DNA of 39,684 nt from a virus (Duplodnaviria > Heunggongvirae > Uroviricota > Caudoviricetes), in the IMG/VR virus record IMGVR_UViG_2740892027_000001; one strand, given 5' to 3'. The first letter of the stretch is position 1, and each line of letters starts with the position of its first letter. The notes beneath the pieces were generated by a model. That model was not told where the DNA came from and ran no database searches. It was given only the letters and a program-made list of their open reading frames with translations. The position numbers were made by a program, and so were the translations under genes. Positions 1-39,684 of the stretch are shown piece by piece.

Positions 1-17
1 AATCATTCCCACTCAAT
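1..17. repeat. Left attachment-site core (attL); 17-bp direct repeat AATCATTCCCACTCAAT
   Basis: Identical 17-mer at 39668-39684; integrase gene lies next to the right copy; phage genes fill the interval. The repeat may extend beyond the window edge. Confidence 0.75.
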
Positions 18-127
18 TATTTACGGATACCATAACCAATTGAGTGATAACACTTTTCCAAATCTCAATTTTCCTCGTACCGTTTTATATACCGTCACAG
101 GAAATCAGTACCATGAAAAATGCTATG

Positions 128-610
128 CTATCTGGTCAGGGTGTCATACTGTTTTTCGCAGACTCTTCCGGCTGCGGCTGCCCGGTCAGCATACTCTGCC
201 AGTTGTCTGTTTCTCTCGAGAGATTTGCTGAGCACGTCGGCAAGCAAAACTCCGGTGTCTGCGGCTGACGTCCCAGCGCCGACAATGGCGTTATACTGCC
301 TGAGCTGCTCACGGATGGCAAAGAGTTGTTGCTGCAACCTGCCAGCGCGAGCGGCAGCATCAAGAGCATCATTGCGCGCCTGGTCGATCCTCTGCTGAGC
401 TTCACGTTCATTGGTCGCTTTCTCCTGTTCGTAGTGCTGACGAACTCTCTCATCTTCAGCTTTGCGGTCTTCCTTCGCCTGCGCATACCCGGCATCGTAC
501 TGGCGACTGCCGTGTATATTCCAGGCAACCACTCCGACGATGAACAGAGCAGCAAGCATCAACACAATAAGCATCTGTTTCCAATATGCTTTTACGAATG
601 CCCAGATCAT
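128..610 (-). CDS. Rz-like i-spanin (lysis)
   Basis: 160 aa; N-terminal transmembrane segment then charged coiled-coil region; start codon overlaps endolysin stop (ATGA); last gene of lysis cassette. Confidence 0.6.
   Translation of the reverse strand: MIWAFVKAYWKQMLIVLMLAALFIVGVVAWNIHGSRQYDAGYAQAKEDRKAEDERVRQHYEQEKATNEREAQQRIDQARNDALDAAARAGRLQQQLFAIREQLRQYNAIVGAGTSAADTGVLLADVLSKSLERNRQLAEYADRAAAAGRVCEKQYDTLTR
136..411 (-). CDS. Rz1-like o-spanin lipoprotein, embedded in Rz in another frame
   Basis: Signal peptide with lipobox: MNVKLSRGSTRRAMMLLMLPLALAG|C, then Pro/Ser-rich mature part; GGAGA Shine-Dalgarno 9 nt upstream of ATG at 411. Alternative starts at 372 or 369. Confidence 0.5.
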   Translation of the reverse strand: MNVKLSRGSTRRAMMLLMLPLALAGCSNNSLPSVSSSGSITPLSALGRQPQTPEFCLPTCSANLSRETDNWQSMLTGQPQPEESAKNSMTP

Positions 611-1236
611 ATAGCCAGCACCTTACTGGCAGTGACGTACCGCGCGCGCCGGTCGTCGATGCCGTTCCGGCCACCATTGATAATCAGAGTTACACGTGCA
701 ATATCGCCGGTATACTTCATGCATCCTTTGCTGGCAAAGAACCACGCCGCGCTACGAGCCGCGTATTCGTCCTGCGCCAGCAGTTCAGGACTCTCCAGCA
801 GGTCAACCTTAAGACCGTTTCCACAGTCACGATAGTTATTCAAACCGGTAATCTGGATAAGTCCGCGACCACGGTAATTCCAGCCATCACCAGAGGCATT
901 GTTACCCATGCGTTTGCTGTACACCAGATTTGCGATCGCGCGCTGGCGCTCAAGTGGCAATGGTGGCTCACCAGCACGGCGGCCCAGTGCGTTAGCCTGT
1001 CCCTGGGTGAGACGCCCAGCCCGAACGAAGTTAGCCAGTCCGGTGACGCTGTAGTTGAAATTTTCCTGCAACCGGTTGAAGCCACCAGACTCATGCCCGA
1101 CCTGAGCAATAAACATTGCCTGATCTTCGGGTTTGCTGATACCAAACTCTTTCATCGCAGAAGTTATATGCGAGAACCAGCGAGCGGCCAGCGCCTCGCT
1201 AATACCAGCAGCTCGCTGGAATTGTTTAATCTCCAT
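607..1236 (-). CDS. Endolysin, glycoside hydrolase family 19 (chitinase-like lysozyme)
   Basis: Motifs VGHESGGF and YRGRGLIQITGLNNY typical of GH19 phage endolysins; start taken at MEIKQFQ (ATG 1236, GAGG Shine-Dalgarno) rather than the longer track ORF 607..1467. Confidence 0.8.
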   Translation of the reverse strand: MEIKQFQRAAGISEALAARWFSHITSAMKEFGISKPEDQAMFIAQVGHESGGFNRLQENFNYSVTGLANFVRAGRLTQGQANALGRRAGEPPLPLERQRAIANLVYSKRMGNNASGDGWNYRGRGLIQITGLNNYRDCGNGLKVDLLESPELLAQDEYAARSAAWFFASKGCMKYTGDIARVTLIINGGRNGIDDRRARYVTASKVLAI

Positions 1237-1534
1237 GTTTAGACCTCGATATTTTGAAAATATGAACAACGTTACCGCGTGTTTTAATAACCGCGGCAAG
1301 CATGACAGCGTTGATAATGACCTCAGATAAATCCACAGCCATTGGCGTGCGTAACCAGATTGCATAGACGACACGAACAGGAATACTTGCCGCAGCAACA
1401 ATAAGGAAATAAGCAAGCCACCCTCCCCATCTTCGATGTTGAGAGCCGTTACGCCGGAATGTGACAACGCGAATTGCTATGCCAGTACAAATAACTGCAT
1501 TGGTGATAAGCAAAAAAAACTCATGCGTTACCAT
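1226..1534 (-). CDS. Small membrane protein of lysis cassette (holin/antiholin-type candidate)
   Basis: 102 aa with hydrophobic segments; sits between holin-like gene and endolysin and overlaps both. Confidence 0.4.
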   Translation of the reverse strand: MVTHEFFLLITNAVICTGIAIRVVTFRRNGSQHRRWGGWLAYFLIVAAASIPVRVVYAIWLRTPMAVDLSEVIINAVMLAAVIKTRGNVVHIFKISRSKHGD

Positions 1535-1925
1535 CGTCTTTTCTCCCCGGAATTAACTCGCGTGGATTATCGGAACGGTGATAGAGCCAGATGCCAATAC
1601 GCACGGCGACAATTGCTGACACGAATGCGCCTGCAGAAAAAACAATCCCTTTTTCAAAAGAGTCCTGCGTGATGGTAGGGATCAGGCTGGCTATGCCGAT
1701 AAGAATTGATGCTGCTGGTTTGTAAAAGAGAAGGCCGCAAAGAAAGCTGATCATCGACAGGAGCACCCGGCGACGGATGGGGTACTCTACTGCAGAGGTA
1801 ACAAAAATTACCGCCCCAGCCAAAGCCCCTAAAGCAACCTCCGGAGGGACACCTGCAATAACCGCAGCAAGAGAACTAACACTAAGCCACTGATTTGAAG
1901 TTTCATTGGTTAGTTGGAATGACAT
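1521..1925 (-). CDS. Holin-like membrane protein
   Basis: 134 aa, several predicted transmembrane helices, immediately upstream of endolysin in same operon. Confidence 0.45.
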   Translation of the reverse strand: MSFQLTNETSNQWLSVSSLAAVIAGVPPEVALGALAGAVIFVTSAVEYPIRRRVLLSMISFLCGLLFYKPAASILIGIASLIPTITQDSFEKGIVFSAGAFVSAIVAVRIGIWLYHRSDNPRELIPGRKDDGNA

Positions 1926-1997
1926 AACGAAACCCGTTTATTTGCAAACACCCTGCTTCAGGAAAAGTATACCGCGCAACAACACACCATTTACGGT

Positions 1998-4460
1998 TCA
2001 ATTCCCTGTTAATTGCAAAACTTGCTCTTCCAGCTTTTTAACCCTGCGTCTCATCATCGCAGATTCCAGAATCAGAGCCTCTTCATAACGGATACCGTAA
2101 CATTCACCAGCCTCGACGGCTTCGCGTACCAGAACCTTTGTCTGTATAAGTGGGTAAACTCCTGCAGAATGCTCTTCTTCCGTCACATCCCTGTATTCTG
2201 CCGGGGTCTCATTCCACTTGTCATAACAGATAAATGCCAGTCGTGACACATCTATGCCTTCATTCTGAAATACACTGATAACATGCTGCGCAACTGCACC
2301 AAAGTGCCATCTTGCTCCGTCTTTACCTTTCACTTCGATCCTGTCAAGGTACTGGTATGAAACCCATTCCACTCTTTCCCATGCGTCCAGTATTTTCTCA
2401 TCAATAACCTCTGGAGCAGTCTTGAAACGCGCATCGGACAGCACCGTAAACGCTGACTGGGTAAATCCCCCCGACCATGCACGACCAGCCAACCCAAGAG
2501 AATAAGTATTCGTTGTCGATGGTGTCATGGCTGAATCAGAAAACTGTATATATTCTGAATTTCCAGTAGATATTCGAATATTTCCATTTATTAGCGACAT
2601 AGTGCCTTTAGTATTATCACTATTGAATAATTTCAATTGCGAACTTATACCGCCTCCCACAGCCAGAGATACATCGCCTTCAGCAAGCATTCTGAATTTA
2701 TCTGCAGAAACAAGCGTCTGGTTAGCAAGGTTAAAATATTTAACCCACCATTCAAAACGCCCTGACATAGTCCCAACGTACTGACCAAGCGCAGGGACGT
2801 GAACAACATTGCTATTTGTAGTGCCGTCTATACTGGAAATACCAGTCACCGCTGATGCAGAACTCAGAATATTATTTCTGTCACCCGGATGTTTAATTTC
2901 AACAAAGTTCCTGATACACCCTTCCTCGAAGGTAACCACGCCGGAAGAACTATACATGGGGAATATTGACGCATAATTACTGCGTGCAGCATCTAAGAAA
3001 CGAATGGTTGTAGATGTCTGCAGATCTCCTGATTCATTTTTCCCATCACACCCAGTCATTAGAATATTACTGGCAATATTATTATTTCCCTGAACGGTGA
3101 CGCCGTGCGCCTGCTTTGCGTCCGATTCAGAGTAATCAACCAGCACATCCGAAATCAGGTTACCAGTCCCCTTGCCAACAACTACTGCGGCGTATTTTGG
3201 GTTGTTAGCCATTACACTGCTAATGATATTATTCGTTGGGGCAGTTTCCGTCTCAGTTCCATTGTAAACAACGTGCTGACACTCTTCACCAATAACATTG
3301 CTGACAATGTTATATTTTGCTGCTGTTTTAAGTTCCACTGCACCAAACTGAGGATAATTTCTGGCTATCACACCATCAATTAGCGTATTTTGCGATGAAT
3401 CAAAAAGCACACAACCTGCTTTTTTATTATTTGCGAACCCTAAATACTCTCCTCTTATATCTCTAACAATGTAACCTGACGGAATACCATTATTCGGATA
3501 AGCGATCAAGCTAAATCCTGTTCCTCGCGTATTTGTAAATCTGATATTTTTAACCGATACATCATGGCCACCTGAAAATGACACCTGGTGTCCCTGCACA
3601 CTATCATCTGATTTATTTCCCATAATTGTTAGCGTACTAAGCATGCCACCATCGGGCATGTTAAAAACCAGATGATTACCATCTCTGTCATACTGTTTTA
3701 TCGTTCCCCCACCTGTTCCGTACAAGCCACAACGTGAAAGAGAAACTAAAGATGTATTGAATACCCCTTCCGGAACAAAAACACTGCTAAACGAATGTAA
3801 TGATTTTGTAAAAGCATCCTTGTTATCATTTAAGATTCCATTTTGAGCTCCAAAATCCTTAATGCTGACACCATCACGCATCTTATCCTGGAACGTTCTG
3901 TATACCGCTCCAGAACCATACTGAATAAACCAACCAAAACCACCAATAACTCCGGCGATTGCAGCATCGACATAATTACGCATTGAGCGATTATTTACAG
4001 CGTCCTGCTCAAGTGATGGATCGGCAAGGTTAGATATTCTGTTTTGCTTTGCATCGTAATATTTTGCAAGCAAAGATGGTTTCATCAATGCACGTCTGAA
4101 CCACCCAAAACATCGCTGGATCAGCATCGTCAGGTAGTCAAATGCATCCTCATGAACTTCGGGGAAAAATTTTCCCTGATTGCGAAGATCAGTCTCCTGC
4201 ACCACATCAAGCACACGCTCTATCGTGATTCGCCAGCCAGCAGCAAGCGGCGACGGAAGAACCACTGCACCGCCACTATAAGTTCCCGCCCCTGTTACCG
4301 TATAACCAGCATCCAGCACTAGTTTTGTAACGTTACCGTTAAGGTCAGACACCTGAACAACCAGGTCGGATTTTTTGAAAATACGGAAGGTATACGGAAA
4401 TGATGTCGTAACGCCGTTACCTGTGTATTCGTTGTGGTCAACTTCGGTTGAGACCGTCAT
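1998..4460 (-). CDS. Tailspike / tail fiber with beta-helix region and C-terminal intramolecular chaperone (peptidase S74-like) domain
   Basis: 820 aa; central Gly/Asn/Thr-rich repeats typical of right-handed beta-helix depolymerases; C-terminus has the LSDARFK autocleavage-type motif and chaperone-like tail; last structural gene before lysis genes. Confidence 0.8.
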   Translation of the reverse strand: MTVSTEVDHNEYTGNGVTTSFPYTFRIFKKSDLVVQVSDLNGNVTKLVLDAGYTVTGAGTYSGGAVVLPSPLAAGWRITIERVLDVVQETDLRNQGKFFPEVHEDAFDYLTMLIQRCFGWFRRALMKPSLLAKYYDAKQNRISNLADPSLEQDAVNNRSMRNYVDAAIAGVIGGFGWFIQYGSGAVYRTFQDKMRDGVSIKDFGAQNGILNDNKDAFTKSLHSFSSVFVPEGVFNTSLVSLSRCGLYGTGGGTIKQYDRDGNHLVFNMPDGGMLSTLTIMGNKSDDSVQGHQVSFSGGHDVSVKNIRFTNTRGTGFSLIAYPNNGIPSGYIVRDIRGEYLGFANNKKAGCVLFDSSQNTLIDGVIARNYPQFGAVELKTAAKYNIVSNVIGEECQHVVYNGTETETAPTNNIISSVMANNPKYAAVVVGKGTGNLISDVLVDYSESDAKQAHGVTVQGNNNIASNILMTGCDGKNESGDLQTSTTIRFLDAARSNYASIFPMYSSSGVVTFEEGCIRNFVEIKHPGDRNNILSSASAVTGISSIDGTTNSNVVHVPALGQYVGTMSGRFEWWVKYFNLANQTLVSADKFRMLAEGDVSLAVGGGISSQLKLFNSDNTKGTMSLINGNIRISTGNSEYIQFSDSAMTPSTTNTYSLGLAGRAWSGGFTQSAFTVLSDARFKTAPEVIDEKILDAWERVEWVSYQYLDRIEVKGKDGARWHFGAVAQHVISVFQNEGIDVSRLAFICYDKWNETPAEYRDVTEEEHSAGVYPLIQTKVLVREAVEAGECYGIRYEEALILESAMMRRRVKKLEEQVLQLTGN

Positions 4461-4564: not shown

Positions 4565-4579
4565 TTACCTTTCAGGTAA
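4565..4579. promoter_or_regulatory. Operator-like palindrome TTACC-tttca-GGTAA (full ATTACC-N5-GGTAAT)
   Basis: Perfect inverted repeat; member of a motif family found at least 14 times in the window, almost always intergenic. Confidence 0.55.
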
Positions 4580-4616: not shown

Positions 4617-4636
4617 TACTGTATAAATATACAGTT
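4617..4636 (+). promoter_or_regulatory. LexA (SOS) box TACTGTATAAATATACAGTT
   Basis: CTGT-N8-ACAG with AT-rich spacer, 15/16 match to CTGTATATATATACAG; ends 6 nt before ATG 4642; an AGCAAA-N7-TTTGCT inverted repeat (4599-4617) abuts it. Confidence 0.65.
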
Positions 4637-4641: not shown

Positions 4642-4914
4642 ATGGAGAAGATTAAGATGCAGCAGTATCACTATCCACTGGAAGAGGGATTTACCGAAAG
4701 GATTCACACGCCGGGAGGCGTCAGGTCACTGGTGGAGGGATCGCACTTGATGAAATTACTCCGGGATCTCGATAAGGATGGATTTAATGTCGATGGCCCA
4801 CTTGCCGAACTGACTGCACTGATTAACTACGTCACCAGCTCACAGATGTCTATGCGGGATCTGCAAACACATCTCGACTATTGTGCCGAACAATTACGAA
4901 AACAAACCAGATAA
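4642..4914 (+). CDS. Small antirepressor-like protein (paralog of the C-terminal domain of the Bro-N antirepressor at 5230-5925)
   Basis: 90 aa; LMKLLRDLDKDGFNVDGPLAELTALINYV...LQTHLDYCAEQL aligns with LMNLLNQLQEDGHDVSGAAAELTTMFCYI...IQTHAEYINDK of the downstream antirepressor; LexA box at promoter. Alternative start ATG 4657 with GGAG Shine-Dalgarno. Confidence 0.55.
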   Translation: MEKIKMQQYHYPLEEGFTERIHTPGGVRSLVEGSHLMKLLRDLDKDGFNVDGPLAELTALINYVTSSQMSMRDLQTHLDYCAEQLRKQTR

Positions 4915-4960: not shown

Positions 4961-5051
4961 ATTTACATCGCACTCCTCTTGTGCCATAGTAATCGGGCAC
5001 TGGCAAAATCCAGTGCCGGGATTGGCGTCCCGGATTACTAAAAGGCGCATT

Positions 5052-5071
5052 CACCGCGCAAGCGGTTTTTT
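5052..5071 (+). terminator. Putative intrinsic terminator (ACCGC-gcaa-GCGGT + T7)
   Basis: Short GC stem followed by TTTTTTT; preceded by two further hairpins at 4996-5033. Confidence 0.4.
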
Positions 5072-5229
5072 TATGCGTATAGCACGGCCACATTCGTATT
5101 ATGGTGGGCTGTGTGGGGGCACCGAAAGGTGCGCCGGGTCCTTTTAGCCGGTTACGCCAACCCTGCACAGTTCACCACCAACCGATTGGCGTCGGTAGTG
5201 GTGATTAACCAGACTAAAAGGTAACCACT

Positions 5230-5925
5230 ATGACAGCTACAAAAAGCACGTCCATTTTTTCTTTCGAATCTCAAGCCGATATACGGGTAATCGTCATTAA
5301 TGGTGAGCCATGGTTTATCGCTTCAGATGTTTGTCGGGCTATAGGCATAGCAAACCATCGAGATGCTGTTCGAAAACTTGATGATGATGAGAAGGGCGTC
5401 GCTTCAACCGACACCCCTGGCGGTGAGCAAGAATCGATCATTATCTCCGAGTCAGGCCTCTACACACTGATCCTCCGCTGCCGCGATGCGGTGACACCAG
5501 GCACTATCCCCTACCGCTTTCGCAAATGGGTTACAGGTGAGGTTCTTCCTCAGATCCGCCGCACCGGAAGTTACATTAAAAACTCGCTCCCGCAGGAAGA
5601 ACGCATAAAGATGGTTGCCGACCAGGTAGCCAACGCCACGGCGTCAGCAGTAATGCAGGCGATGAAGATAGAGAACAAAACCTACAGCGCCCCGCTGAAG
5701 CCCGGCTACCGCAGCCTGATTCACTCGCCGTCTGGTGTTCTCGGCCTGACGGAAAACTCACTGCTGATGAATCTGCTGAACCAGTTACAGGAAGACGGGC
5801 ACGACGTATCGGGCGCGGCGGCGGAGCTGACCACCATGTTTTGCTACATCGTTGGTGTGAGCAAGTGCCTGCGTGATATCCAGACGCACGCGGAGTACAT
5901 CAACGACAAGGCTGGGTTCTTCTGA
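5230..5925 (+). CDS. Antirepressor with N-terminal Bro-N domain
   Basis: 231 aa; N-terminus SIFSFESQADIRVIVINGEPWFIASDVCRAIGI matches the Bro-N signature; C-terminal domain shared with ORF 4642-4914. Confidence 0.75.
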   Translation: MTATKSTSIFSFESQADIRVIVINGEPWFIASDVCRAIGIANHRDAVRKLDDDEKGVASTDTPGGEQESIIISESGLYTLILRCRDAVTPGTIPYRFRKWVTGEVLPQIRRTGSYIKNSLPQEERIKMVADQVANATASAVMQAMKIENKTYSAPLKPGYRSLIHSPSGVLGLTENSLLMNLLNQLQEDGHDVSGAAAELTTMFCYIVGVSKCLRDIQTHAEYINDKAGFF

Positions 5926-5991
5926 CGGGCGGCGGCACAGGGACGTGCCTTTAAAATAATCATTGGCGATGTGATGTAGATTCGCGTAATA

Positions 5992-6006
5992 TTACCTTAC
6001 GGGTAA
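5992..6006. promoter_or_regulatory. Operator-like palindrome TTACC-ttacg-GGTAA
   Basis: Perfect inverted repeat 39 bp upstream of ATG 6045; the 17-mer ATTACCTTACGGGTAA also occurs at 33330-33345. Confidence 0.55.
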
Positions 6007-6044
6007 ACCCCGTTTAATGGCGTTTCTATATTATGAGGTGATGT

Positions 6045-6680
6045 ATGCCACAACAACTGCTGAATCCGGCAAAGGTTACTGAAGTTTTCGCTCATCTGAA
6101 CGAAACTCCAGACAACCGCGCCCTGTATTCAGAGTTAGTGAACGGCAACGATGTCACATCTGATGTCAAAGGCGTTTCTCTGGCTCCTGGATACCGCGTT
6201 GTCCGTGTAGACGATCGTAAGAAAGGCGAGATTCCACAGGCGCACTTCGAACTGGCATTGATAAATGACCTCACCGAAGAGGTAGTGTATTACAATCGTG
6301 TCATTATCCAACCTGACAGCTATCTTAACTGCCGACCTGTCACGCAGATATTGGTATGGAGAACCCAGAAGCCTAAGCATCGTGCTGTGCTTCATGATTT
6401 CGCCGGCATCATCTTCATGAACTACCTCTTGGAACGGTACGATATCATCGTGTCAGATCGCAACCAGACTCATGAAGGCATGTCGTTCTGGCAGGCTCGC
6501 ATGTATGACGCACTGGAACTTGGCCTCCACCTCTATGGTTACGACATGATGACATGCGAGCTGATAGAGATGAATAACGAGGAAGAGCTTGAGAAAGGTG
6601 AAACCTGGTTGTGGGGTGATGCGGAAAACTTCCAAAACAGATTGGCCATAATTTCAAAGCATAAGCTGCCAATAAAATAG
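6045..6680 (+). CDS. Hypothetical protein, stand-alone accessory (moron) gene
   Basis: 211 aa, GAGGTG Shine-Dalgarno; own operator-like site upstream and strong terminator downstream; no family recognised by eye. Confidence 0.6.
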   Translation: MPQQLLNPAKVTEVFAHLNETPDNRALYSELVNGNDVTSDVKGVSLAPGYRVVRVDDRKKGEIPQAHFELALINDLTEEVVYYNRVIIQPDSYLNCRPVTQILVWRTQKPKHRAVLHDFAGIIFMNYLLERYDIIVSDRNQTHEGMSFWQARMYDALELGLHLYGYDMMTCELIEMNNEEELEKGETWLWGDAENFQNRLAIISKHKLPIK

Positions 6681-6688
6681 TTCTTTAA

Positions 6689-6709
6689 GCCCGCGGCGCG
6701 GGCTTTTTT
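6689..6709 (+). terminator. Intrinsic terminator (GCCCGCG-g-CGCGGGC + T6)
   Basis: GC-rich hairpin then TTTTTT, 9 nt after the stop of ORF 6045-6680. Confidence 0.7.
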
Positions 6710-6745
6710 GTGTCTGCGGATTCCCGCCCTGGCGGCGGTGGCATT

Positions 6746-6774
6746 CGTTAAAAACAAGGCCGCGAAAGCGGCCT
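6746..6774 (-). terminator. Intrinsic terminator on minus strand (AGGCCGC-tttc-GCGGCCT + TGTTTTTAA)
   Basis: Hairpin directly abuts the GTGACATGTCAC palindrome and follows the stop of ORF 6783-7079. Confidence 0.55.
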
Positions 6775-6786
6775 GTGACATGTCAC
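6775..6786. repeat. 12-bp perfect palindrome GTGACATGTCAC (copy 1 of 3)
   Basis: Identical 12-mer at 24324-24335 and 26589-26600; overlaps the TGA stop of ORF 6783-7079. Confidence 0.7.
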
Positions 6787-7079
6787 GTTCCTTTTCTGAA
6801 TGATAGCCATTCGAAAAATGATGACATTCCACCGCAGACAATAGCAAAGATGATCCCACCAAAGAAGAGAAGGCCAGCCTGCCACCACTCCCACCGCCAT
6901 ACATCCACAGCGCCAACCATACCAACAATCGCTCCAACAAATGGAATATAGCTCACGATGAAAGCAATGGGGGCTGCAATTATCCAGTGCAATCCCCACC
7001 ATGATTCAAGCCCAGCCATAATTGCTGCCAACTGAAAAAGACCAACGACGATATAAACAATGAATCCTATAGCTTGCAT
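6783..7079 (-). CDS. Small integral membrane protein
   Basis: 98 aa, about three hydrophobic helices; between internal virion protein genes and the antirepressor island. Confidence 0.5.
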   Translation of the reverse strand: MQAIGFIVYIVVGLFQLAAIMAGLESWWGLHWIIAAPIAFIVSYIPFVGAIVGMVGAVDVWRWEWWQAGLLFFGGIIFAIVCGGMSSFFEWLSFRKGT

Positions 7080-7274
7080 GTAGTCACCTATTTACCCAGT
7101 AAAAATCAGAGGCCTCCCCTCAATAAGGCTTGCAACAAGAACTACTCCCTGCACAACAAAGATGAACCAGCAAATAGCTTGAGTCTGAGGGTTAAGAAAA
7201 TATTTGTAGCGGTCAATAAATAACAGCCCACCAGAAATTATCACACTCAAAATAATTAAAAACACAACACTTCC

Positions 7275-9749: not shown

Positions 9750-9754
9750 TTAAT

Positions 9755-14067: not shown

Positions 14068-14079
14068 CTTATTATCCCC

Positions 14080-27184: not shown

Positions 27185-27214
27185 ATCTTTTCACCTTTAA
27201 GGATAAGTTGCAGG

Positions 27215-28402: not shown

Positions 28403-28412
28403 TCGTTATGCC

Positions 28413-28610: not shown

Positions 28611-28611
28611 A

Positions 28612-29798: not shown

Positions 29799-29859
29799 CT
29801 TTACCCTCGCTTATCCACATAACTTATTGATTACACTGATAACTAAAAAGATCGTCGAT

Positions 29860-30204
29860 TCAGAACTCTTCGATGTTCCAGCCACCACCTGCTTTCTTTG
29901 GTTTAACCGTTACCCCGATGATTCGGAACGGATACTGATCTGCGGCGACTTTGGTTTTCACCCTGGCGTCGTCGGTCCAGAAACCTTTCACTTCGTGCAG
30001 TTCCATCTCGCCGGTGGCGAGCATCACAGCAAAATCGGGCGTATAGAACGTGTTGTCAGCTAACCGTAGCTTGATACCCTCGAATCGATACCAGGCGATT
30101 TCCCCTGCACGTTTACGAAGCTCAAGGTGCTGGCAATACGCAGATTCTGTTTTGTTCATCTGGCCTGTTTTGAGTCGACCAAGAGCCTGTATCTGTTTTC
30201 TCAT
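29860..30204 (-). CDS. Small PD-(D/E)XK-type protein (DUF1064-like putative nuclease)
   Basis: 114 aa; TPDFAV...EMELHEVKG fits the D...E-x-K restriction-endonuclease-fold motif. Confidence 0.5.
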   Translation of the reverse strand: MRKQIQALGRLKTGQMNKTESAYCQHLELRKRAGEIAWYRFEGIKLRLADNTFYTPDFAVMLATGEMELHEVKGFWTDDARVKTKVAADQYPFRIIGVTVKPKKAGGGWNIEEF

Positions 30205-32303: not shown

Positions 32304-32534
32304 TCATGAGTAGAAGAAGTATGCCAGTTCTGCTTTTGAGCGCAGCCATTGTCTTGTTTTACAGGCTTTAAAAAGCCCATTCATCAATACTTTACCTGGC
32401 ATTTTGCGCTTACCTGTTAAGTGAGTCTGGATATAGTGACTCGTCGTTCCGGCTTCCTGTGCGAAGGCTTCACGCTCATCCGGAGTAAGTGCAAGCCAGT
32501 GCTTTTTGAAATCGAAATGTCCGTTATCGCTCAT
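32304..32534 (-). CDS. Cro-like HTH regulator
   Basis: 76 aa; helix-turn-helix-like EAFAQEAGTTSHYIQTHLTGKRK; first gene of the rightward early operon, divergent from the repressor gene across the operator cluster. Confidence 0.55.
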   Translation of the reverse strand: MSDNGHFDFKKHWLALTPDEREAFAQEAGTTSHYIQTHLTGKRKMPGKVLMNGLFKACKTRQWLRSKAELAYFFYS

Positions 32535-32688: not shown

Positions 32689-33273
32689 ATGAAAAGTATC
32701 CAGGACGTCCGCAGGCAAAATCTCAACGACTTGATCGACCGTGAATTCAATGGTGTTCAGACGCGGATGGCAGAAAAACTTGGAACTCAGGCAAATCTGG
32801 TAAACCGCTGGGCTCTTGGTAAGAAGGTTATCGGCGATCAGGTTGCGCGAAAAATTGAAGCTGCCGCCAATAAACCCCGTAACTGGCTTGATATCGATCG
32901 CTCGCTTTCTCAGGAAGGTTTTCAGCCTGTCGGCCCAAGCGACATTGGCCAGCTGGCGGCTCACAACCTGGAACGCTGGATGAGCGAAAGCCGCGACCTT
33001 TCAACACAGGGAAAACTTCACCGCGCATCCGGCGTAGCCCAGGTGACAATCAGCCGCCTGTTAAACAATGAGGTCAGCGTTTCCATTTCCACCCTGGAGA
33101 ATGTTGCATCTGCATTCGGGCGTCACGGATATGAACTACTGATTCACCCGCACGACCCTGCAACTATCAACTATGACCGCTCGCGCTACGCATTGTTACC
33201 TGAAACAGAGAAAGCAAAGATCGAAAGTTACATTGAATTTGTCATCAACCAGAACGAAAAAAGCAAACAATAA
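32689..33273 (+). CDS. Prophage repressor candidate (two HTH domains, no S24 peptidase domain)
   Basis: 194 aa; HTH at QTRMAEKLGTQANLVNRWALGKK and a second at KLHRASGVAQVTISRLLNNEV; divergent from the cro-like gene; followed by a strong terminator. Confidence 0.6.
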   Translation: MKSIQDVRRQNLNDLIDREFNGVQTRMAEKLGTQANLVNRWALGKKVIGDQVARKIEAAANKPRNWLDIDRSLSQEGFQPVGPSDIGQLAAHNLERWMSESRDLSTQGKLHRASGVAQVTISRLLNNEVSVSISTLENVASAFGRHGYELLIHPHDPATINYDRSRYALLPETEKAKIESYIEFVINQNEKSKQ

Positions 33274-33426: not shown

Positions 33427-33576
33427 ATGCAGTGGAAAATCATCAACGGTTGGTACTGCGTTACTGCATGCGGATTCATGAGCTGGAAGTTCCGCACCTT
33501 ACAGGAAGGCATCAAGTGGGCTTTCATCAGCAAAGAAGCTCGCGATGTGGCAAACGATAACGAGATATGGGAGTAG
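33427..33576 (+). CDS. Small hypothetical protein (first ORF of early-left operon)
   Basis: 49 aa (below the track's 60-aa cutoff); GAGG 8 nt upstream of ATG; co-oriented with the downstream operon. Confidence 0.3.
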   Translation: MQWKIINGWYCVTACGFMSWKFRTLQEGIKWAFISKEARDVANDNEIWE

Positions 33577-33584
33577 GTTAGCAA

Positions 33585-34619
33585 ATGAGTGAATTATCAA
33601 TCATCGAAATCACACCAGACATGGCACCAAGAATTTACGTTGAAAAAGGGCTGGAAAAGTTTCTCGAGCAGATCCGTGAAGGTGTTAATGAAGTGCCTGA
33701 CATTAGCACAGACAAAGGCAGAAAGCGCATTGCATCTCTGGCTGCGAAGGTTTCAAGAAGTAAAACAGCGGTAGAAAAACCAGGACGTGATTATCTGAAA
33801 CGCCTGAAAGAACAGCCGAAAGTAGTTGAAGCAGAGTTACGACGCTTCGTAACCGAATGCGATCGGCTTCGTGATGAAGTACGCCGCCCACTCACCGAGT
33901 GGGAAAATGCTGAGAAATTACGCACTGAAGCACTGCAACAACGCCTGACAAATTTGCGAGCACTAGCTGACGTGATCGATCTCTCCGGAAACTACTTGCC
34001 ATCATCTGATATTCAGGAACGAATTCAAGAGGCTAAATCAGTAGCACTTGATGAAAGTTGGCAGGAGTACGCAGCAGAAGCTGGAGTAGCCAAGGATTCA
34101 ACCATCCAGAAACTGGAAGAATCACTCGCAGTAGCTCAAAAACGCGAGCATGAAGCCGCTGAGCTGGAGCGACTTCGCAAAGAAGCGGAGGAAAAAGCGC
34201 GCATTGAGCGAGAAGAGAATATGCGACGGGAAGCTGCTGAACAGGCCAGGCTCGAAGCTGAACAAAAAGCGAAAGCTGAAATTGAGGCTGCGGCACGCCT
34301 GGCGGCGGAAGAAAAAGCACGTGCTGAAGTAGCAGAACGTCAGCGAATTGAAGCAGAGCAGCGTGCACGACGCGAAAAAGAAGAAGCCGTTGCCGAGGAA
34401 CGCCGACGCCAAGAGGCGGCAGAAAAAGCCCGCCTTGACGAACAGAAGCGTATCGCCGACGAAGAAGCGCGCCGAGCTGCAGATAAAGAGCATCGCCGTA
34501 CCGTTAACCGCAGAGTAATCGCAGATCTGATAGCCCAAGGCATTCACGAAGAATTCGCGCAGAAAGCAATGTTGGCTATCGCTGGCGGCAAAGTGCAGGA
34601 CGCGTATATCAAATATTGA
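33585..34619 (+). CDS. Coiled-coil protein with Glu/Ala/Lys/Arg-rich repeat region
   Basis: 344 aa; globular N-terminal about 160 aa then long AEEKARxEAEQ-type helical repeats; upstream of recombination genes. Confidence 0.55.
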   Translation: MSELSIIEITPDMAPRIYVEKGLEKFLEQIREGVNEVPDISTDKGRKRIASLAAKVSRSKTAVEKPGRDYLKRLKEQPKVVEAELRRFVTECDRLRDEVRRPLTEWENAEKLRTEALQQRLTNLRALADVIDLSGNYLPSSDIQERIQEAKSVALDESWQEYAAEAGVAKDSTIQKLEESLAVAQKREHEAAELERLRKEAEEKARIEREENMRREAAEQARLEAEQKAKAEIEAAARLAAEEKARAEVAERQRIEAEQRARREKEEAVAEERRRQEAAEKARLDEQKRIADEEARRAADKEHRRTVNRRVIADLIAQGIHEEFAQKAMLAIAGGKVQDAYIKY

Positions 34620-34626
34620 GGTGGGT

Positions 34627-34926
34627 ATGAACGTTAATCAGCAGAAAAATCTTCAAAAAATCATGCTGGCATTCGACAAGGACTACCGCCTGTCAGAACA
34701 GCTATATGACCGACAAGTTGAACTGATCGATAGCATCCGGCTTCATCAACTGGCCTCAACTTTTGACGCTGTAACAGGCAAAGGAGTTCGCCAGGAAGTA
34801 CTGGAGGCTGCTAAAGACAGCCCTGAGTTCGAAGAACTGATGGATGCCTACCGGCGAGAGGCAATGGCAATTATCGCCCGCTGGGATCTGGCGGATCGGA
34901 TTGATGGGCAGAGGGAAGCGGCATGA
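34627..34926 (+). CDS. Hypothetical protein
   Basis: About 99 aa from ATG 34627 (GAGGTG Shine-Dalgarno); 4-nt overlap with the exonuclease gene. Confidence 0.5.
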   Translation: MNVNQQKNLQKIMLAFDKDYRLSEQLYDRQVELIDSIRLHQLASTFDAVTGKGVRQEVLEAAKDSPEFEELMDAYRREAMAIIARWDLADRIDGQREAA

Positions 34927-35744
34927 AACCGGGAATTTATTTCGACATCAGCAATGAGGACTACCACGCCGGTGACGGCGTGAGTAAGTCGCAACTGGAC
35001 ATGGTTGCCAAGAATCCGGCGCTTCTTAAATGGGTTCAGGCAGCACCAGAAGACGAAGAGAAAAAGTCTGCACTGGATATGGGAACCGCATTGCACTGTC
35101 TGCTTCTGGAGCCTGGAGAGTTCGACAAACGCTTCATTGTTTCACCGAAATTCGATCGTCGGACGAAACAAGGTAAAGCTGACGAAGAGGCATTTCTTCG
35201 TGATGTGGCGGATATGGGGATTACGGTACTTGATGCCGAGCAGTGGCGGAAACTGGAGCTGATGCGTGATAGCGCAATGGCTCACCCGGCGGCACGCTGG
35301 ATGCTGGAAGCCCCTGGTTACTGCGAAGCATCAATGTACTGGAACGATGAAGAGACGGGGGAGTTGTGCCGAATTCGTCCAGACAAATGGCTGAACGAGC
35401 ACAACGTGATCGTCGACGTGAAAAAGGTTGCAGATATGGACCGTTTTGCACGCCACATCGAGGAATTCCGCTACCACGTGCAGGACGCAATGTACCGCGA
35501 AGGCGCAATGAGGGTTACTGGTCAGCCGCATGGTTTTTTCTTTCTTGCCGTGAGCGAAAGCATTGATTGTGGTCGGTATCCGGTACGCGTGTTCGAGCTG
35601 GATGCGCAGGATGTCGATGCCGGGCACGCTCTGTTCCGCCGGGATCTGAATACCTATCACGAATGCCGCATCAATGATGAATGGGGCGGTGTGGAAATCA
35701 TTAAACGCCCTGAGTGGGCACGCAAACAGGATATGTACATATGA
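34923..35744 (+). CDS. RecE-like exodeoxyribonuclease VIII family protein (PD-(D/E)XK exonuclease)
   Basis: 273 aa; IRPDKW...IVDVKKV resembles the D...D/E-x-K nuclease motif; stop overlaps the recT start (ATGA). Confidence 0.6.
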   Translation: MKPGIYFDISNEDYHAGDGVSKSQLDMVAKNPALLKWVQAAPEDEEKKSALDMGTALHCLLLEPGEFDKRFIVSPKFDRRTKQGKADEEAFLRDVADMGITVLDAEQWRKLELMRDSAMAHPAARWMLEAPGYCEASMYWNDEETGELCRIRPDKWLNEHNVIVDVKKVADMDRFARHIEEFRYHVQDAMYREGAMRVTGQPHGFFFLAVSESIDCGRYPVRVFELDAQDVDAGHALFRRDLNTYHECRINDEWGGVEIIKRPEWARKQDMYI

Positions 35745-36682
35745 GCAACGACATCGCAAACATCAACGCACCAGTAGACACAGCAATCGCTGGAACTGCT
35801 GCAACTATTTTCAGCCCAGACGGCTTGAACCAACTGATGAAATTCGCCGAGGTAATGGCGCAAAGCCGCGTAACGGTACCGGCGCACCTCGCCGGGAAAC
35901 CAGCTGATTGCATGGCCGTGGCAATGCAGGCTGCGCAGTGGGGAATGAACCCGTTTGCCGTGGCTCAGAAAACCCATGTTGTGAACGGCACGCTAGGTTA
36001 TGAAGCCCAATTAGTAAACGCAGTTATCTCAACGATGTCGCCAACAAAAGATCGCATCAACTACGAGTGGTTCGGGCCGTGGGAACGCGTGATCGGTAAG
36101 TTTGTTGAGAAAACATCCAAAAACGGCAATCCATATATCGCACCAGGCTGGACTCTAAAAGACGAAGAAGGCTGCGGTGTTCGCGTATGGGCAACCATGA
36201 AGGGCGAGGATCAACCTCGAGTGCTTGAGTTAATGCTGTCTCAAGCACAGGTAAGAAACTCCACACTTTGGGCCAGTGATCCGAAACAACAACTCGCATA
36301 CCTTGCGACAAAACGCTGGTCTCGCCTGCACTGTCCTGACGTAATCATGGGCGTCTACACCCCAGACGAATTACAGGAAACGGCACCGCGCGTTGAGCGA
36401 GACATTACTCCGCAAACGACCACTGCTGCGGGAATGAACAGTCTGATCAACGCTAAACCAGCGAAAAAGCCTGATGAGCAAACGCGTAAAGCGGATAGCC
36501 GTGATCCAGAAGAAATGCTGATGGCCTTTACCAGCGCAGCGATGAATTACAGCACTGTCTCCGAACTGGATAAGGCTTACAAATACATTGCACAAAAACT
36601 TTCAGATGATGACGAACTGCTGGCAAAAGCCACCGACGTTTACAGCGTTCGTCGGGAAGAATTAAACGAAACATCTATGTAA
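35741..36682 (+). CDS. recT: RecT-like single-strand annealing recombinase
   Basis: About 313 aa from ATG 35741, translationally coupled to the exonuclease gene; size and context fit RecT. Not motif-verified. Confidence 0.6.
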   Translation: MSNDIANINAPVDTAIAGTAATIFSPDGLNQLMKFAEVMAQSRVTVPAHLAGKPADCMAVAMQAAQWGMNPFAVAQKTHVVNGTLGYEAQLVNAVISTMSPTKDRINYEWFGPWERVIGKFVEKTSKNGNPYIAPGWTLKDEEGCGVRVWATMKGEDQPRVLELMLSQAQVRNSTLWASDPKQQLAYLATKRWSRLHCPDVIMGVYTPDELQETAPRVERDITPQTTTAAGMNSLINAKPAKKPDEQTRKADSRDPEEMLMAFTSAAMNYSTVSELDKAYKYIAQKLSDDDELLAKATDVYSVRREELNETSM

Positions 36683-37089: not shown

Positions 37090-37389
37090 GTGAGAAAGTT
37101 AAGCCGACTTGAAAAATATCACATGAATAAGGTTTCAATGCGCAGTCCGTCAAAGATTGTCGCCGTTACTCCTGCGGCGATAGAGATCGAAAAACGCGCG
37201 ATTGAAAGAGAGAAAAAAGGGCAGTTCCGCATTGCCGCTCACCTTTGGCTTCAGTGTATGGATGTTGCTTCTGGTGATGTTGAGCGTGCAAGGATCGCGG
37301 TTCGCAGGGACCAATGTATCACAAAAGGTAACGGCCTTCGCCGTGGAGACTATAGCGGTATAGGATGTTGCGGGGTGGTTTGTGACTAA
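37090..37389 (+). CDS. Small regulator-like protein (PerC/ANR-like?)
   Basis: 99 aa; EREKKGQFRIAAHLWLQCMDVA resembles the helical core of small PerC/ANR-type regulators (weak, from memory). Confidence 0.3.
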   Translation: MRKLSRLEKYHMNKVSMRSPSKIVAVTPAAIEIEKRAIEREKKGQFRIAAHLWLQCMDVASGDVERARIAVRRDQCITKGNGLRRGDYSGIGCCGVVCD

Positions 37390-38032
37390 GAAATACACAC
37401 TAATCTATGCAGATCCACCCTGGGTATACCGGGACAAAGCCGCAGATGGTAATCGCGGTGCCAGTTTTAAATATCCGGTTATGAGTGTGATGGATATCTG
37501 CCGCCTTCCTGTGTGGGATTTGGCCGATGAAAACTGTCTGTTGGCCATGTGGTGGGTGCCAACACAACCACTCGAAGCGCTAAAAGTTGTTGAAGCCTGG
37601 GGATTCCGTCTGATGACCATGAAGGGCTTCACGTGGATAAAATGTGGTAGTCGACAACCAGATAAACTGGTTATGGGTATGGGGCACATGACTCGCGCCA
37701 ATAGTGAAGATTGCCTGTTTGCGGTAAAGGGAAAACTACCTACGCGCATTAATGCAGGGATCGTTCAGTCATTTACCGCACCGCGGCTTGAGCATTCAAG
37801 AAAACCAGATATCGTTCGTGAAAAACTTGTGCAATTGTTAGGCGATGTTTCTCGCATTGAACTGTTCGCCAGACAGACGTCTCATGGCTTCGATGTTTGG
37901 GGTAATCAGTGCGAAGACCCGGCAGTGCAACTACACCCTGGATACGCGTTGGATATTGCCGGATTAACAAATGCATTCAGCAATGCTCCGCTGTCACCAA
38001 CAGACAACCAGGGGCGGGAGCGTGCAGCATGA
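37382..38032 (+). CDS. MT-A70 family DNA N6-adenine methyltransferase
   Basis: 216 aa; catalytic DPPW motif (LIYADPPWVY) near the N-terminus; GTG start overlapping the upstream gene. Confidence 0.8.
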   Translation: MTKKYTLIYADPPWVYRDKAADGNRGASFKYPVMSVMDICRLPVWDLADENCLLAMWWVPTQPLEALKVVEAWGFRLMTMKGFTWIKCGSRQPDKLVMGMGHMTRANSEDCLFAVKGKLPTRINAGIVQSFTAPRLEHSRKPDIVREKLVQLLGDVSRIELFARQTSHGFDVWGNQCEDPAVQLHPGYALDIAGLTNAFSNAPLSPTDNQGRERAA

Positions 38033-38223
38033 ACAGGGCATCACCAGCAGATTTAAGGAAATGCCTTGAAACTGCAAACATGCTTGCACACAGCGGGATC
38101 AGGTTTGTTCCAATTCCCGCTGTCACTGATGCTGAATTTGCAACGCTGTCAGCAATATTCGCAGACAAAATTGAATCACTGGCAGCAGAAGCCGAGATGG
38201 AAGAAAATCAGCAGAACTATTAA
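38029..38223 (+). CDS. Small hypothetical protein
   Basis: 64 aa from ATG 38029, which overlaps the methyltransferase stop (ATGA); last gene of the plus-strand operon. Confidence 0.45.
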   Translation: MNRASPADLRKCLETANMLAHSGIRFVPIPAVTDAEFATLSAIFADKIESLAAEAEMEENQQNY

Positions 38224-38226: not shown

Positions 38227-39477
38227 TTATTCTCCCGCCATCCACTTCTCAAACTTCGACGGGGAGAACGGAATCAGATCCGTATGCTCCCCGTCAATCC
38301 AGGAATCAATCATATCTGCCCACTGCTGCAACATGTAGGCGCGCTGTCTGGCGTATTCCGCTTTGTTATATACGGCGCGCACACCTTTCTGCTCATGTGC
38401 CAGAGCCTTTTCAATCCAGTCTGAAGGATAACCAGCCTCATGCAACAACGTACTGGCTGTACGGCGCATATCGTGTACGGTGAAGTCCTGAATATGCTCA
38501 CCATCTTCATTTATTATTTTCACCGTTCTGTCGATCAGTGAGTTCAACGCGGCATTAGATAATGGCTTCCGGAAATTGTAACGACCAGGAACCAGGTATT
38601 CACTTCCACCAGCGCACATCTGCAACCCAACCAATATATCCTGTGCTTGTTTAGGCAGGTAAATAACGTGCGCCCGGCTTCCCTTCATGCGGTCTGAAGG
38701 AATTGTCCATGTCCATTTTTTAAAATCTATTTCATCCCACGTTGCATTGGTGAATTCGCCTTTACGAACCATAGTGATAAGCACCAGCTTTAAAGCCATT
38801 TTCATAGTGCCCATAGCACCAATGGCATCCAGCGTGCGGAAGAACAGACCAATTTCTTCTGGTGTCAGTGTTCGCTCTCGTGGTTTAAATATGGCGATAG
38901 ACGAAGGTTTAATGTCAGCCGCAGGATTAAACAAACCATGACCACGGTCATTGGCATGACGGTATACGCTGCTGATGATCTCCCTGGCCTGCACTGCTGT
39001 TGCCAGGCCGCCGCGTTCGACAATCCGGTCACACAAATCACGAACCATCGATGTGGTAATTTCAGTCATCATTTTGTTGCCAAGAACCGGAAGTATGTCA
39101 CGGTCGATCACCGCCTGCTTCATTGCGCGGGTACTGTCAGCCAGGATGACATGTTTCATATAACTGTCGGTATGTACCGCAAACGTCTCGGCACCACGAA
39201 TCTTTTTGATACCGTCACGTTTAGCCGCAGCCGGTGACTGGCCTGCTTTAAGCAGCTTCTTTGCAGCAATCAGTTCTTCTCGCGCTTCTGCCAGGCTGAT
39301 ACCGTCACGCCCATACTGCCCGATTACCAGTGTTTCGCGGCGACCGTTGATACGGTAGTCATAGCGAAACGAGACCGTGCCTGACGTAAGCACAGCTACA
39401 TACAGCCCGTCACGATCGGAGACCTTGTACAGTTTGTCCTGCGGCTTGAGGTTTTTTAATTTTGTATCGGTAAGCAC
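38227..39477 (-). CDS. int: Tyrosine integrase, P4-type (N-terminal arm-binding domain)
   Basis: 416 aa; N-terminal LTDTKLKNLKPQDKLYKVSDRDGLYVAV...FRYDYRINGRR arm-binding domain; C-terminal catalytic region with HDMRRT and terminal Tyr; next to the right att repeat. Confidence 0.9.
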   Translation of the reverse strand: MLTDTKLKNLKPQDKLYKVSDRDGLYVAVLTSGTVSFRYDYRINGRRETLVIGQYGRDGISLAEAREELIAAKKLLKAGQSPAAAKRDGIKKIRGAETFAVHTDSYMKHVILADSTRAMKQAVIDRDILPVLGNKMMTEITTSMVRDLCDRIVERGGLATAVQAREIISSVYRHANDRGHGLFNPAADIKPSSIAIFKPRERTLTPEEIGLFFRTLDAIGAMGTMKMALKLVLITMVRKGEFTNATWDEIDFKKWTWTIPSDRMKGSRAHVIYLPKQAQDILVGLQMCAGGSEYLVPGRYNFRKPLSNAALNSLIDRTVKIINEDGEHIQDFTVHDMRRTASTLLHEAGYPSDWIEKALAHEQKGVRAVYNKAEYARQRAYMLQQWADMIDSWIDGEHTDLIPFSPSKFEKWMAGE

Positions 39478-39519
39478 AATTCACCCGTATAGAAACCATT
39501 TTCATGACGGTATGAGAGT

Positions 39520-39534
39520 ATACCTTTAAGGTAA
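39520..39534. promoter_or_regulatory. Operator-like site ATACC-tttaa-GGTAA upstream of int
   Basis: One mismatch to the TTACC-N5-GGTAA consensus; 43 bp upstream of the integrase start codon. Confidence 0.45.
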
Positions 39535-39588
39535 TACCGTCACCTGTACCGCCGAAAAATATGGTGTAGAGTGAATAGAAATGAATAC

Positions 39589-39622
39589 ATAAAAACAAAA
39601 ACCCTCTGTAAAAACAGAGGGT
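39589..39622 (-). terminator. Strong intrinsic terminator on minus strand next to the right att repeat
   Basis: ACCCTCTG-tttta-CAGAGGGT hairpin followed by TTTTTGTTTTT on the minus strand. Confidence 0.6.
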
Positions 39623-39667
39623 TGAGTTAGTATCTGAATAGGAATGACTTGCTATGAGTTAGCTGTT

Positions 39668-39684
39668 AATCATTCCCACTCAAT
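39668..39684. repeat. Right attachment-site core (attR); 17-bp direct repeat AATCATTCCCACTCAAT
   Basis: Identical to 1-17. Confidence 0.75.

Follow-up and report, generated by a model that had tools for sequence, protein, structure and literature searches.

The 39,684-nucleotide stretch of DNA recorded in IMG/VR as IMGVR_UViG_2740892027_000001 (hereafter, the window) is very probably an intact, integrated temperate podophage of the genus Uetakevirus (the epsilon15/phiV10 group), which ends exactly at both of its attachment (att) cores and whose control, replication, tailspike and lysis steps are best explained as set out below. The element is ordinary for its genus, and earlier publications on related phages have described both the att site and the antirepression switch. 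The points worth following up are its tailspike, which resembles lyases of the K5 capsule, the absence of conversion genes and a second antirepressor gated by a C4 RNA, and no others.

Genome comparison and taxonomic position

The window was compared with 50,697 phage records by megablast, with positions 1–25000 and the remainder queried separately. Positions 1–25000 matched phiv142-3 (Accession No. MN187550) at 97.1% identity with 83% covered and phiV10 (NC_007804) at 96.7% identity with 82% covered; the O157 typing phages 9 and 10 were also among the close matches (~96–97% identity with 80–83% covered), and epsilon15 and SPN1S were found at 76–79% identity. The rest of the window gave like relatives at like identities. 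In all, the aligned share of the window is ~84% for phiv142-3 and ~83% for phiV10, at ~96–97% identity, i.e. ~80% overall similarity, which lies above the genus line of Uetakevirus (at least 70% nucleotide similarity to a member) and below the species line of 95%. The collinear genes, the epsilon15 gp7-type capsid protein (PF20911), the attP core ATTGAGTGGGAATGATT and the insertion at the 3' end of guaA place the element in the same genus.

Gene order, att core and guaA site are shared with phiV10 and phiv142-3, as are the LexA box, the isrK/C4 module and the tRNA-Arg gene, and the repressors are 99.5% identical. In a gene-by-gene comparison, the structural, lysis, replication, recombination and integration genes are full length with 94–100% amino acid (aa) identity (~40 common genes), the exceptions being a gp14-like gene (64%) and one holin gene (80%); the integrase gene is whole here and split in phiv142-3. 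A local blastn map identified three segments without a counterpart in either relative, namely ~1914–4040 (the receptor-binding part of the spike), 5937–7271 and 26989–29620, the latter two holding accessory blocks unlike those of the relatives. A further segment (33574–34626, which contains orf344) is missing from phiV10 alone and not from phiv142-3, and minor gaps against phiv142-3 were located at 5206–5652, 23968–24322 and 36025–36256. SPC32H and epsilon15 share genus, layout and att core with the window but differ from it at the nucleotide level (~76–80% identity).

The first-pass annotation, made from the sequence alone, had described a whole prophage running from attL to attR and of epsilon15/phiV10 type, mosaic in build and with a gene order that is neither that of lambda nor that of P22, and had proposed a whole-genome comparison as a check. 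That comparison places the element with phiV10 and phiv142-3 in Uetakevirus; completeness is borne out by the gene set, the 17-bp terminal repeats and the ~96–97% identity to relatives, and the gene order by collinearity and by matches in Pfam, PHROGs and PDB. As for the mosaic build, different gene types are indeed joined, but in the normal architecture of an existing genus, and no fresh hybrid has arisen. A recent fusion of lambdoid early genes with T7-like late genes, which would put the element outside the described genera, could account for the P, Ead/Ea22, DUF551 and RecT genes, all common to lambdoid and P1-like phages. We give this explanation practically no credence, since epsilon15, phiV10 and SPC32H have this same architecture throughout, in the early genes as elsewhere, the nucleotide identity to the E. 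coli members is ~97%, and the repressor, Ant and initiator are of the genus's own types and not those of lambda; the genome comparisons already refute it.

The element might also be a cryptic remnant that is complete in looks only and no longer inducible. Relatives do decay, as exemplified by the split integrase gene of phiv142-3, and host lineages have changed capsule since. Against this, the ~40 genes held in common with the plaque-forming phiV10, including int, xis, terminase, portal and lysis genes, are full length and both att cores are intact, so that we consider a remnant quite unlikely and an intact prophage the better reading.

Integration at the 3' end of guaA

The attL core (1–17) is an exact direct repeat of the attR core (39668–39684); the window contains no third copy of this 17-mer, AATCATTCCCACTCAAT, on either strand. 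The reverse complement of the core corresponds to the last four codons and the stop codon of guaA (ATT GAG TGG GAA TGA, i.e. IEWE-stop). In lysogens whose ends are near-identical to those of the window, the right end of the element continues into guaA (E. coli XH992) and the left end, at attL, abuts yfgI (E. coli ECSC054). In E. coli K-12, the yfgI-guaA site is empty and uninterrupted and holds a single core copy, and the phiV10 virion genome likewise has one copy, placed between Rz and int; the identity between attP and attB ends precisely at the limits of the 17 bp. The int-guaA junction was found in 557 of the 5,426 complete E. coli genomes. The first-pass annotation had taken the repeats as the recombination junctions and had suggested looking for the core in an uninfected host; the lysogen ends, the empty K-12 site with its one copy and the single phiV10 copy all confirm that view. 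For phiV10 and epsilon15, this 17-mer is a proven attP according to the literature, and in vB_EcoP_ZX5 (ZX5), another Uetakevirus, it was shown by experiment to be the attP/attB sequence at the guaA 3' end (PMC9782041).

The int gene (38227–39477, minus strand, beside attR) encodes an intact tyrosine integrase of 416 aa with 98.3% identity to phiV10 Int. Its Pfam domains (Arm-DNA-bind_3, Phage_int_M and Phage_integrase), i.e. an Arm-DNA-bind_3 domain together with a tyrosine recombinase catalytic domain, identify it as P4 type. The usual, although not obligatory, target of such integrases is the 3' end of a tRNA gene, which is not the case here, and the earlier remark that the core is not a tRNA end despite the P4-type integrase thus holds, the target being the guaA 3' end. 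The junction sequences show that the integrase joined the 17-bp attP core to the guaA 3' end of identical sequence, an insertion that regenerates the guaA reading frame at attR. A probable excisionase of the AlpA family (PF05930; 36732–36980, plus strand) is also present, the epsilon15 homologue of which is annotated as an excisionase.

A terminator scan revealed a hairpin on the minus strand (39598–39624) that is identical at 25 of 27 positions to the yfgI-guaA intergenic hairpin of K-12. The phage arm therefore carries a look-alike of the host terminator, so that guaA keeps a terminator in the lysogen. Unrelated sequence separates this hairpin from the 17-bp core.

Tailspike and its predicted receptor

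The tailspike gene (1998–4460, minus strand) encodes a protein of 820 aa that combines a particle anchor, a K5 lyase-like beta-helix and an S74 chaperone. Residues 1 to ~180 form an epsilon15-type anchor, matching the N-terminus of the Carin-1 spike Dpo31 (PDB 8ck1, E = 6e-30). Residues 199–675 align without a gap to residues 66–542 of the crystal construct of the K5 lyase KflA (PDB 2x3h, E = 1e-185), i.e. the homology extends over the entire catalytic beta-helix as expected of a KflA/ElmA-type lyase, and residues 675–814 constitute the S74 intramolecular chaperone. The Pfam matches of the spike are Peptidase_S74 and Beta_helix, and it also matches PDB 9vvr (E = 2e-226). KflA of coliphage K5A thus resembles the window spike in both its entire catalytic beta-helix and its S74 chaperone, but differs in being carried by virulent SP6-like or T7-like phages, in its N-terminal anchor and in sequence (57% identity). 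Among phage records, the best matches have 55–57% aa identity (57% for the K5A K5 lyase; the others are Kagunavirus, Vectrevirus and Kayfunavirus spikes), and the strong matches are otherwise K5-lyase spikes of K5-infecting phages.

No deposited phage record carries this spike. Only two clusters among 5.8 billion clustered proteins have at least 89% identity to it; both consist of proteins of 820 aa, and their named sources are E. coli. At the DNA level, the spike was found at 99% identity or more in 68 of the 5,426 complete E. coli genomes (~1.3%). The annotated 'eliminase' of EC.W1-9 was considered as a K5 lyase and rejected, being a phiv142-3-type spike. ElmA, the chromosomal K5 lyase of E. 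coli K5, is given as prophage-derived in a review. The label 'ElmA' occurs neither in the exact-sequence cluster of the spike nor among its homologues. The window spike may well be ElmA, which is likewise a protein of 820 aa, or a near copy of it.

The receptor-binding part of the spike is unlike that of phiV10, which infects O157, and of phiv142-3. The gap between spike and holin genes is 72 bp, so that neither the O-acetyltransferase gene of phiV10 nor the conversion genes of epsilon15 and SPC32H can lie there, and no serotype-conversion gene follows the spike. In SPC32H and epsilon15, by contrast, the spike is specific for the O-antigen and is accompanied by conversion genes (oac, gtr or those for the epsilon15 polymerase). 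Since the catalytic part of the spike is that of a K5 heparosan lyase, the sequence points to the K5 (heparosan) capsule, which the spike would probably cleave, as the most likely receptor rather than the O-antigen; the absence of the O-antigen-modifying genes that stand beside the spike in phiV10, epsilon15 and SPC32H fits such a receptor. ZX5 also has a capsule-directed spike, but with a K1 endosialidase-like domain and no K5 lyase.

The capsule types of lysogens of sequence type 1193 (ST1193) were taken from published typing. Strains MCJCHV-1 and 09-02E (NZ_CP030111.1 and NZ_AP022650.1), which are spike-positive and have the prophage at guaA, belong to the K1-capsule ST1193, a lineage that switched to K1 from an ancestral K5 capsule (PMC11488385). 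This ancestry is circumstantial support for entry through K5, and the spike may preserve the capsule type of the host at the time of lysogenization.

If the likeness to K5 lyases were one of fold only, the spike could, like those of phiV10 and epsilon15, recognize an O-antigen, or else some other glycan. The identity to KflA is limited to 57%, tailspike specificity can shift with few changes, and several lysogens are now K1, all of which would suit such a spike. The gap-free alignment over the whole catalytic beta-helix, the origin of the remaining strong matches, all of them K5-lyase spikes, from K5-infecting phages, the lack of an O-antigen conversion gene after the spike and the K5 ancestry of ST1193 speak against it, and we hold it to be unlikely. 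On the preferred reading, a virion of T7 type would attach through a K5 heparosan-lyase tailspike.

Control of lysogeny and induction

The prophage repressor Rep (194 aa; 32689–33273, plus strand) has Pfam HTH_3 as its only domain and can be aligned from end to end with the SPC32H repressor (PDB 5d50_A, E = 3.5e-42); no S24 autocleavage domain was detected by Pfam. On the opposite strand lies a Cro-like early regulator of 76 aa (32304–32534; phrog_35), identical to phiV10 p41 (100%). A small antirepressor gene, ant (4657–4914, plus strand), stands beside the spike gene and encodes a protein of 85 aa with 88% identity to the characterized Ant of SPC32H. It is preceded by a LexA (SOS) box, TACTGTATAAATATACAGTT (4617–4636, plus strand), which has two mismatches to the consensus and is the sole match in the window (0 expected); the box is kept in phiV10, phiv142-3, the ECSC054 prophage and SPC32H. 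The window thus possesses homologues of both SPC32H proteins together with a LexA box at the ant promoter, as in SPC32H itself.

A passage in a review (PMC7380047), citing Kim and Ryu 2013 on SPC32H, states that in such Salmonella prophages cleavage of LexA leads to the production of Ant, which inactivates the repressor. According to the ZX5 paper (PMC9782041), the ZX5 repressor is identical to those of phiV10 and phiv142-3, overexpression of the antirepressor favours lysis, and the prophage is induced by mitomycin C. ZX5 is thus a Uetakevirus for which integration at guaA, mitomycin C inducibility and antirepressor function have been shown by experiment; its antirepressor has only ~39% identity to the phiV10 and phiv142-3 proteins.

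Fourteen copies of an operator-like palindrome, TTACC-N5-GGTAA, were identified in the window (0.52 expected) as predicted repressor sites, at 4333, 4565 (4565–4579, upstream of ant), 4946, 5992, 23351, 26478, 26496, 30208, 30270, 32571, 32619, 33331, 33393 and 39520. They are placed in the ant, early-left, early-right, late, replication and int regions, and the RefSeq record of epsilon15 annotates repressor sites at matching places. This scatter over the whole genome suggests direct repressor control of many promoters, unlike the two operators of lambda. A repressor of the SPC32H type, which lacks a self-cleavage domain, would thus hold lysogeny by binding these palindromes at ~13 places close to promoters; DNA damage would lift LexA off the box before ant, and Ant would then disable the repressor.

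The first-pass annotation had assigned a lambda-type repressor control to the element, and this assignment is not sustained: the repressor has no S24 domain, and the window contains an SPC32H-type Rep, a LexA-boxed Ant and a C4 RNA module. Induction as in lambda, by RecA-stimulated self-cleavage of the repressor, with the LexA box and Ant as accessories, has in its favour, besides that initial label, the finding that P22 is still SOS-inducible without ant (PMC7380047). It is nevertheless very unlikely in view of the missing Peptidase_S24 domain, the full-length homology to SPC32H Rep, which has been solved in complex with Ant, and the conserved SOS box upstream of ant. We therefore favour LexA-gated antirepression.

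Downstream of ant, the same strand carries an isrK-like RNA element (4997–5072; RF01394, 77.9 bits vs. a gathering score of 50) and a C4-type antisense RNA of the P1/P7 immI type (5097–5182; RF01695, 77.7 bits vs. a gathering score of 45), followed by a gene for a second antirepressor (231 aa; 5230–5925, plus strand). This protein fuses a Bro-N domain (Pfam) to an Ant-like C-terminal part, its residues 149–223 being 40% identical to SPC32H Ant (PDB 5d50_E, E = 1e-13). Two unpaired boxes of the C4 RNA are complementary to the leader of this gene: ACGCCAA to 5186–5192 (7 nt) and CCUUUUAG to 5214–5221 (8 nt), the latter covering its Shine-Dalgarno sequence. Copies of both target boxes are contained in the isrK-like element (5022–5028 and 5038–5045). 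Judging from this complementarity, C4 RNA derived from the transcript that also specifies Ant would mask the ribosome site of the Bro-N antirepressor gene.

The arrangement recalls the immI operon of P1 and P7 (c4-icd-ant), where a C4-family RNA likewise precedes an antirepressor gene, with two short target-complementary boxes, one of them over the ribosome site, and copies of the target boxes upstream. It differs in that a small ant gene under LexA control stands first in the operon, the antirepressor gene encodes a Bro-N fusion and icd is missing, there being only 47 nt, too few for an icd frame, between the end of C4 (5182) and the ATG at 5230. The isrK/C4/Bro-N module also occurs in phiV10 and phiv142-3, without being annotated there as RNA; neither the isrK/C4 RNA and the Bro-N antirepressor nor a tRNA was found in the epsilon15 and SPC32H sequences examined.

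The last gene of the LexA/C4-controlled operon, orf211 (6045–6680, plus strand), belongs to a family of unknown function (phrog_1349), and searches of Pfam, NCBIfam and PADLOC gave no match. Its AlphaFold2 (AF2) model (predicted local distance difference test score, pLDDT, 84.6) shows a weak likeness to GNAT acetyltransferases by Foldseek (E ~1e-4, template modelling (TM) score 0.34–0.47). Copies with at least 90% identity occur across E. coli, Salmonella, Klebsiella and Enterobacter; a Pseudomonas homologue lies in an accessory locus of a P2-like prophage beside a gene for an OLD-family nuclease, and the Photorhabdus copies are solitary.

Virion and lysis genes

Six-frame open reading frame (ORF) analysis resolved the window into three transcription blocks, namely a long one on the minus strand running from 26.5 to 0.1 kb, an early one on the same strand (32.5–26.6 kb) and one on the plus strand at 32.7–38.2 kb, the last followed by int on the minus strand. 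The first block (26556 to 128) comprises, in order of transcription, genes for the terminase small and large subunits, portal, a 233-aa protein, capsid, adaptor, nozzle, internal virion proteins, tailspike, two holins, endolysin and Rz/Rz1. The cro-like gene, initiator and P genes are also on the minus strand, and the repressor, RecE-like, RecT, AlpA/Xis, PerC and methylase genes are on the plus strand.

All of the following virion genes are on the minus strand. The terminase small (25882–26556; Terminase_2, PF03592) and large (24410–25885; phrog_2) subunits are as a pair 99% identical to those of phiV10. The portal gene (21360–23039) belongs to the T7 gp8 family (PF12236, E = 1.6e-187), and the major capsid gene (19368–20360) to the epsilon15 GP7 family (PF20911, E = 5.5e-149). 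Between them, at the position of a scaffold gene, lies a gene (20369–21070) for a 233-aa protein labelled 'protease' in RefSeq and PHROGs (phrog_458). It has an acidic, proline-rich N-terminus and a helical C-terminus and gave no match in Pfam or PDB searches; by position and composition it may be the scaffold, or by its label a protease. Three small head-associated proteins of 109, 114 and 145 aa (18159–19316) are homologues of epsilon15 gp10, gp9 and gp8, with 97–99% identity to phiV10 p13, p12 and p11, respectively; in the RefSeq notes for epsilon15, gp10 is listed among the capsid proteins and gp8 is compared to the cement protein Bbp16.

The 201-aa tail adaptor (17554–18159) matches the Carin-1 'Connector'; its AF2 model (pLDDT 85.8) retrieved 8ck1_E by Foldseek (E = 4.9e-17), and the predicted fold is also that of T7 gp11 (7box_N, E = 1.2e-6, probability 1.00, TM 0.58). 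The 823-aa tail nozzle (15083–17554), at the position of T7 gp12, matches the Carin-1 'Tail Nozzle' (PDB 8ck1_A, E = 1.5e-217) and phrog_376 (tail protein). Internal virion or ejection proteins of 824, 600, 837, 179 and 154 aa are encoded at 7275–15083. They are 95–99% identical to phiV10 p16 and p18–p20, apart from the 179-aa protein, which is 64% identical to p17 and matches Pfam T7_gp14 (PF24072, E = 8e-8). The 837-aa protein has a lysozyme-like domain at residues 249–398 (PDB 9vvp_L, E = 3.8e-38; endolysin 7q47) and in this resembles T7-type ejection proteins. The portal, 233-aa protein, capsid, adaptor, nozzle, core protein and spike genes are collinear with T7 genes 8 to 17. The link to T7, proposed at the outset for the morphogenesis block, is genuine, as indicated by the portal family, the gp14 family and the gp11 adaptor fold, with the nozzle match as a possible further sign.

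Just upstream of the late genes, a putative transcription regulator is encoded (26597–26938, minus strand; phrog_536), which is a homologue of epsilon15 gp49 and 97% identical to phiV10 p55. Two small membrane proteins, identified by their hydrophobic profiles, of 98 aa (6783–7079) and 57 aa (7092–7265), are encoded on the minus strand at 6783–7265, and both are also present in phiv142-3. The sole tRNA gene, tRNA-Arg(UCU) (23688–23764; ARAGORN; Rfam tRNA, 73.3 bits), is on the plus strand and runs opposite to the late genes; the phiv142-3 record places its copy on the other strand, whereas Rfam assigns the plus strand. Because it overlaps a minus-strand ORF (23694–23945, homologous to phiV10p04), the latter is probably not a gene.

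The lysis genes, all on the minus strand, encode two holin-family membrane proteins with hydrophobic segments (1226–1534, PF05449; 1521–1925, PF16931), a glycoside hydrolase family 19 (GH19) endolysin (607–1236; PF00182; 97% identity to that of phiV10), an Rz-type i-spanin of 160 aa (128–610; DUF2514, E = 4e-45; 90% identity to phiV10 Rz) and an Rz1 lipoprotein o-spanin (136–372), which is embedded within the Rz gene in the +1 frame and has the lipobox LALAGC. Lysis would accordingly be predicted to run via the holins, the GH19 endolysin and the nested spanins.

Replication, recombination and accessory genes

The replication initiator gene (31104–31937, minus strand) encodes a protein with HTH_36 and DnaT domains (Pfam), which gave no Pfam match to the lambda O family. 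It is followed on the same strand by a gene for a lambda P-family helicase loader (30322–31107; PF06992, E = 1.5e-56). Of the lambdoid replication that had been proposed initially, the P part is therefore retained, but the supposed O protein is a DnaT/HTH_36 initiator. About eight iterons with the core CCCGTTTTTGG and periods of 24 and 18 nt lie at 31455–31686 inside the initiator gene and represent a probable origin, an arrangement like that of lambda O although the protein is outside the O family. Replication would then use this initiator with its in-gene iterons together with the lambda-P-type loader.

On the plus strand, genes for a PD-(D/E)XK RecE-like exonuclease (34923–35744; DUF3799) and RecT (to 36682) are followed, beyond the AlpA-family gene, by those for a PerC-family activator, an MT-A70 adenine methyltransferase and a DUF1382 protein (37090–38223; Pfam). 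PerC/Pch proteins regulate virulence loci in enteropathogenic and enterohaemorrhagic E. coli, and the PerC-family gene (37090–37389), located in the early-left operon, could hence be a lysogenic-conversion function. In the same block, orf344 (33585–34619, plus strand) encodes a highly charged, Glu/Arg/Ala-rich coiled-coil protein of a function-unknown family (phrog_1376) that is present in phiv142-3 and not in phiV10; Pfam and PADLOC gave no match. As an insertion, this gene separates the early-left promoter from the genes for recombination, and SPN1S and SPC32H have a DGQHR/DndB-like gene in this same block.

A variable accessory block on the minus strand (26963–29798) contains genes for proteins of 73 aa, 395 aa (DUF551), 65 aa, 249 aa (Ead/Ea22) and 146 aa (Pfam). 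This region (26940–29860) is a patchwork with 94–98% nucleotide identity to P1-like plasmid prophages (P7 and RCS47), to Shiga toxin (Stx) and Shigella lambdoid phages and to Ss-VASD; it is covered to at most 42% by any single record and is mostly absent from phiV10 and phiv142-3. PADLOC found no defence system match for any accessory ORF.

Implications

Several points weigh against the interpretation given here: that this element is inducible and specific for K5, that LexA binds its box and that the C4 RNA acts as proposed are predictions from homology; the identity between the lyase domain and the characterized KflA is no higher than 57%; some present-day lysogens are K1, so that the spike mismatches the current capsule in some hosts; and the gp14-like gene, at only 64% identity to that of phiV10, is assumed to be compatible. 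With these in mind, the following joint reading has, in our estimation, about an even chance of being right in all its parts. An ElmA-type lyase, an enzyme used in heparin biomanufacturing, would be the working spike of an intact, SOS-inducible, K5-specific Uetakevirus, a temperate and capsule-directed podophage so far lacking a deposited isolate; K1 strains of ST1193 would, in carrying it, retain a record of their former K5 capsule; and in the E. coli branch of Uetakevirus there would be a two-tier switch, with a LexA-gated Ant and then a C4-gated Bro-N antirepressor, that is undescribed for these phages.

The finding mainly tidies: what seemed an odd mosaic with an odd att site is a standard phiV10-type prophage at the published guaA site. 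The spike gives a home to the prophage-type K5 lyase, and the prophage points to an inducible source of a K5-specific temperate phage for typing or capsule studies. The mismatch between spike and capsule in ST1193 strains suggests a use of prophage spikes for dating switches of capsule. Finally, the LexA box, Ant, the C4 RNA and the second antirepressor would together provide a concrete induction model for the E. coli members of the genus.

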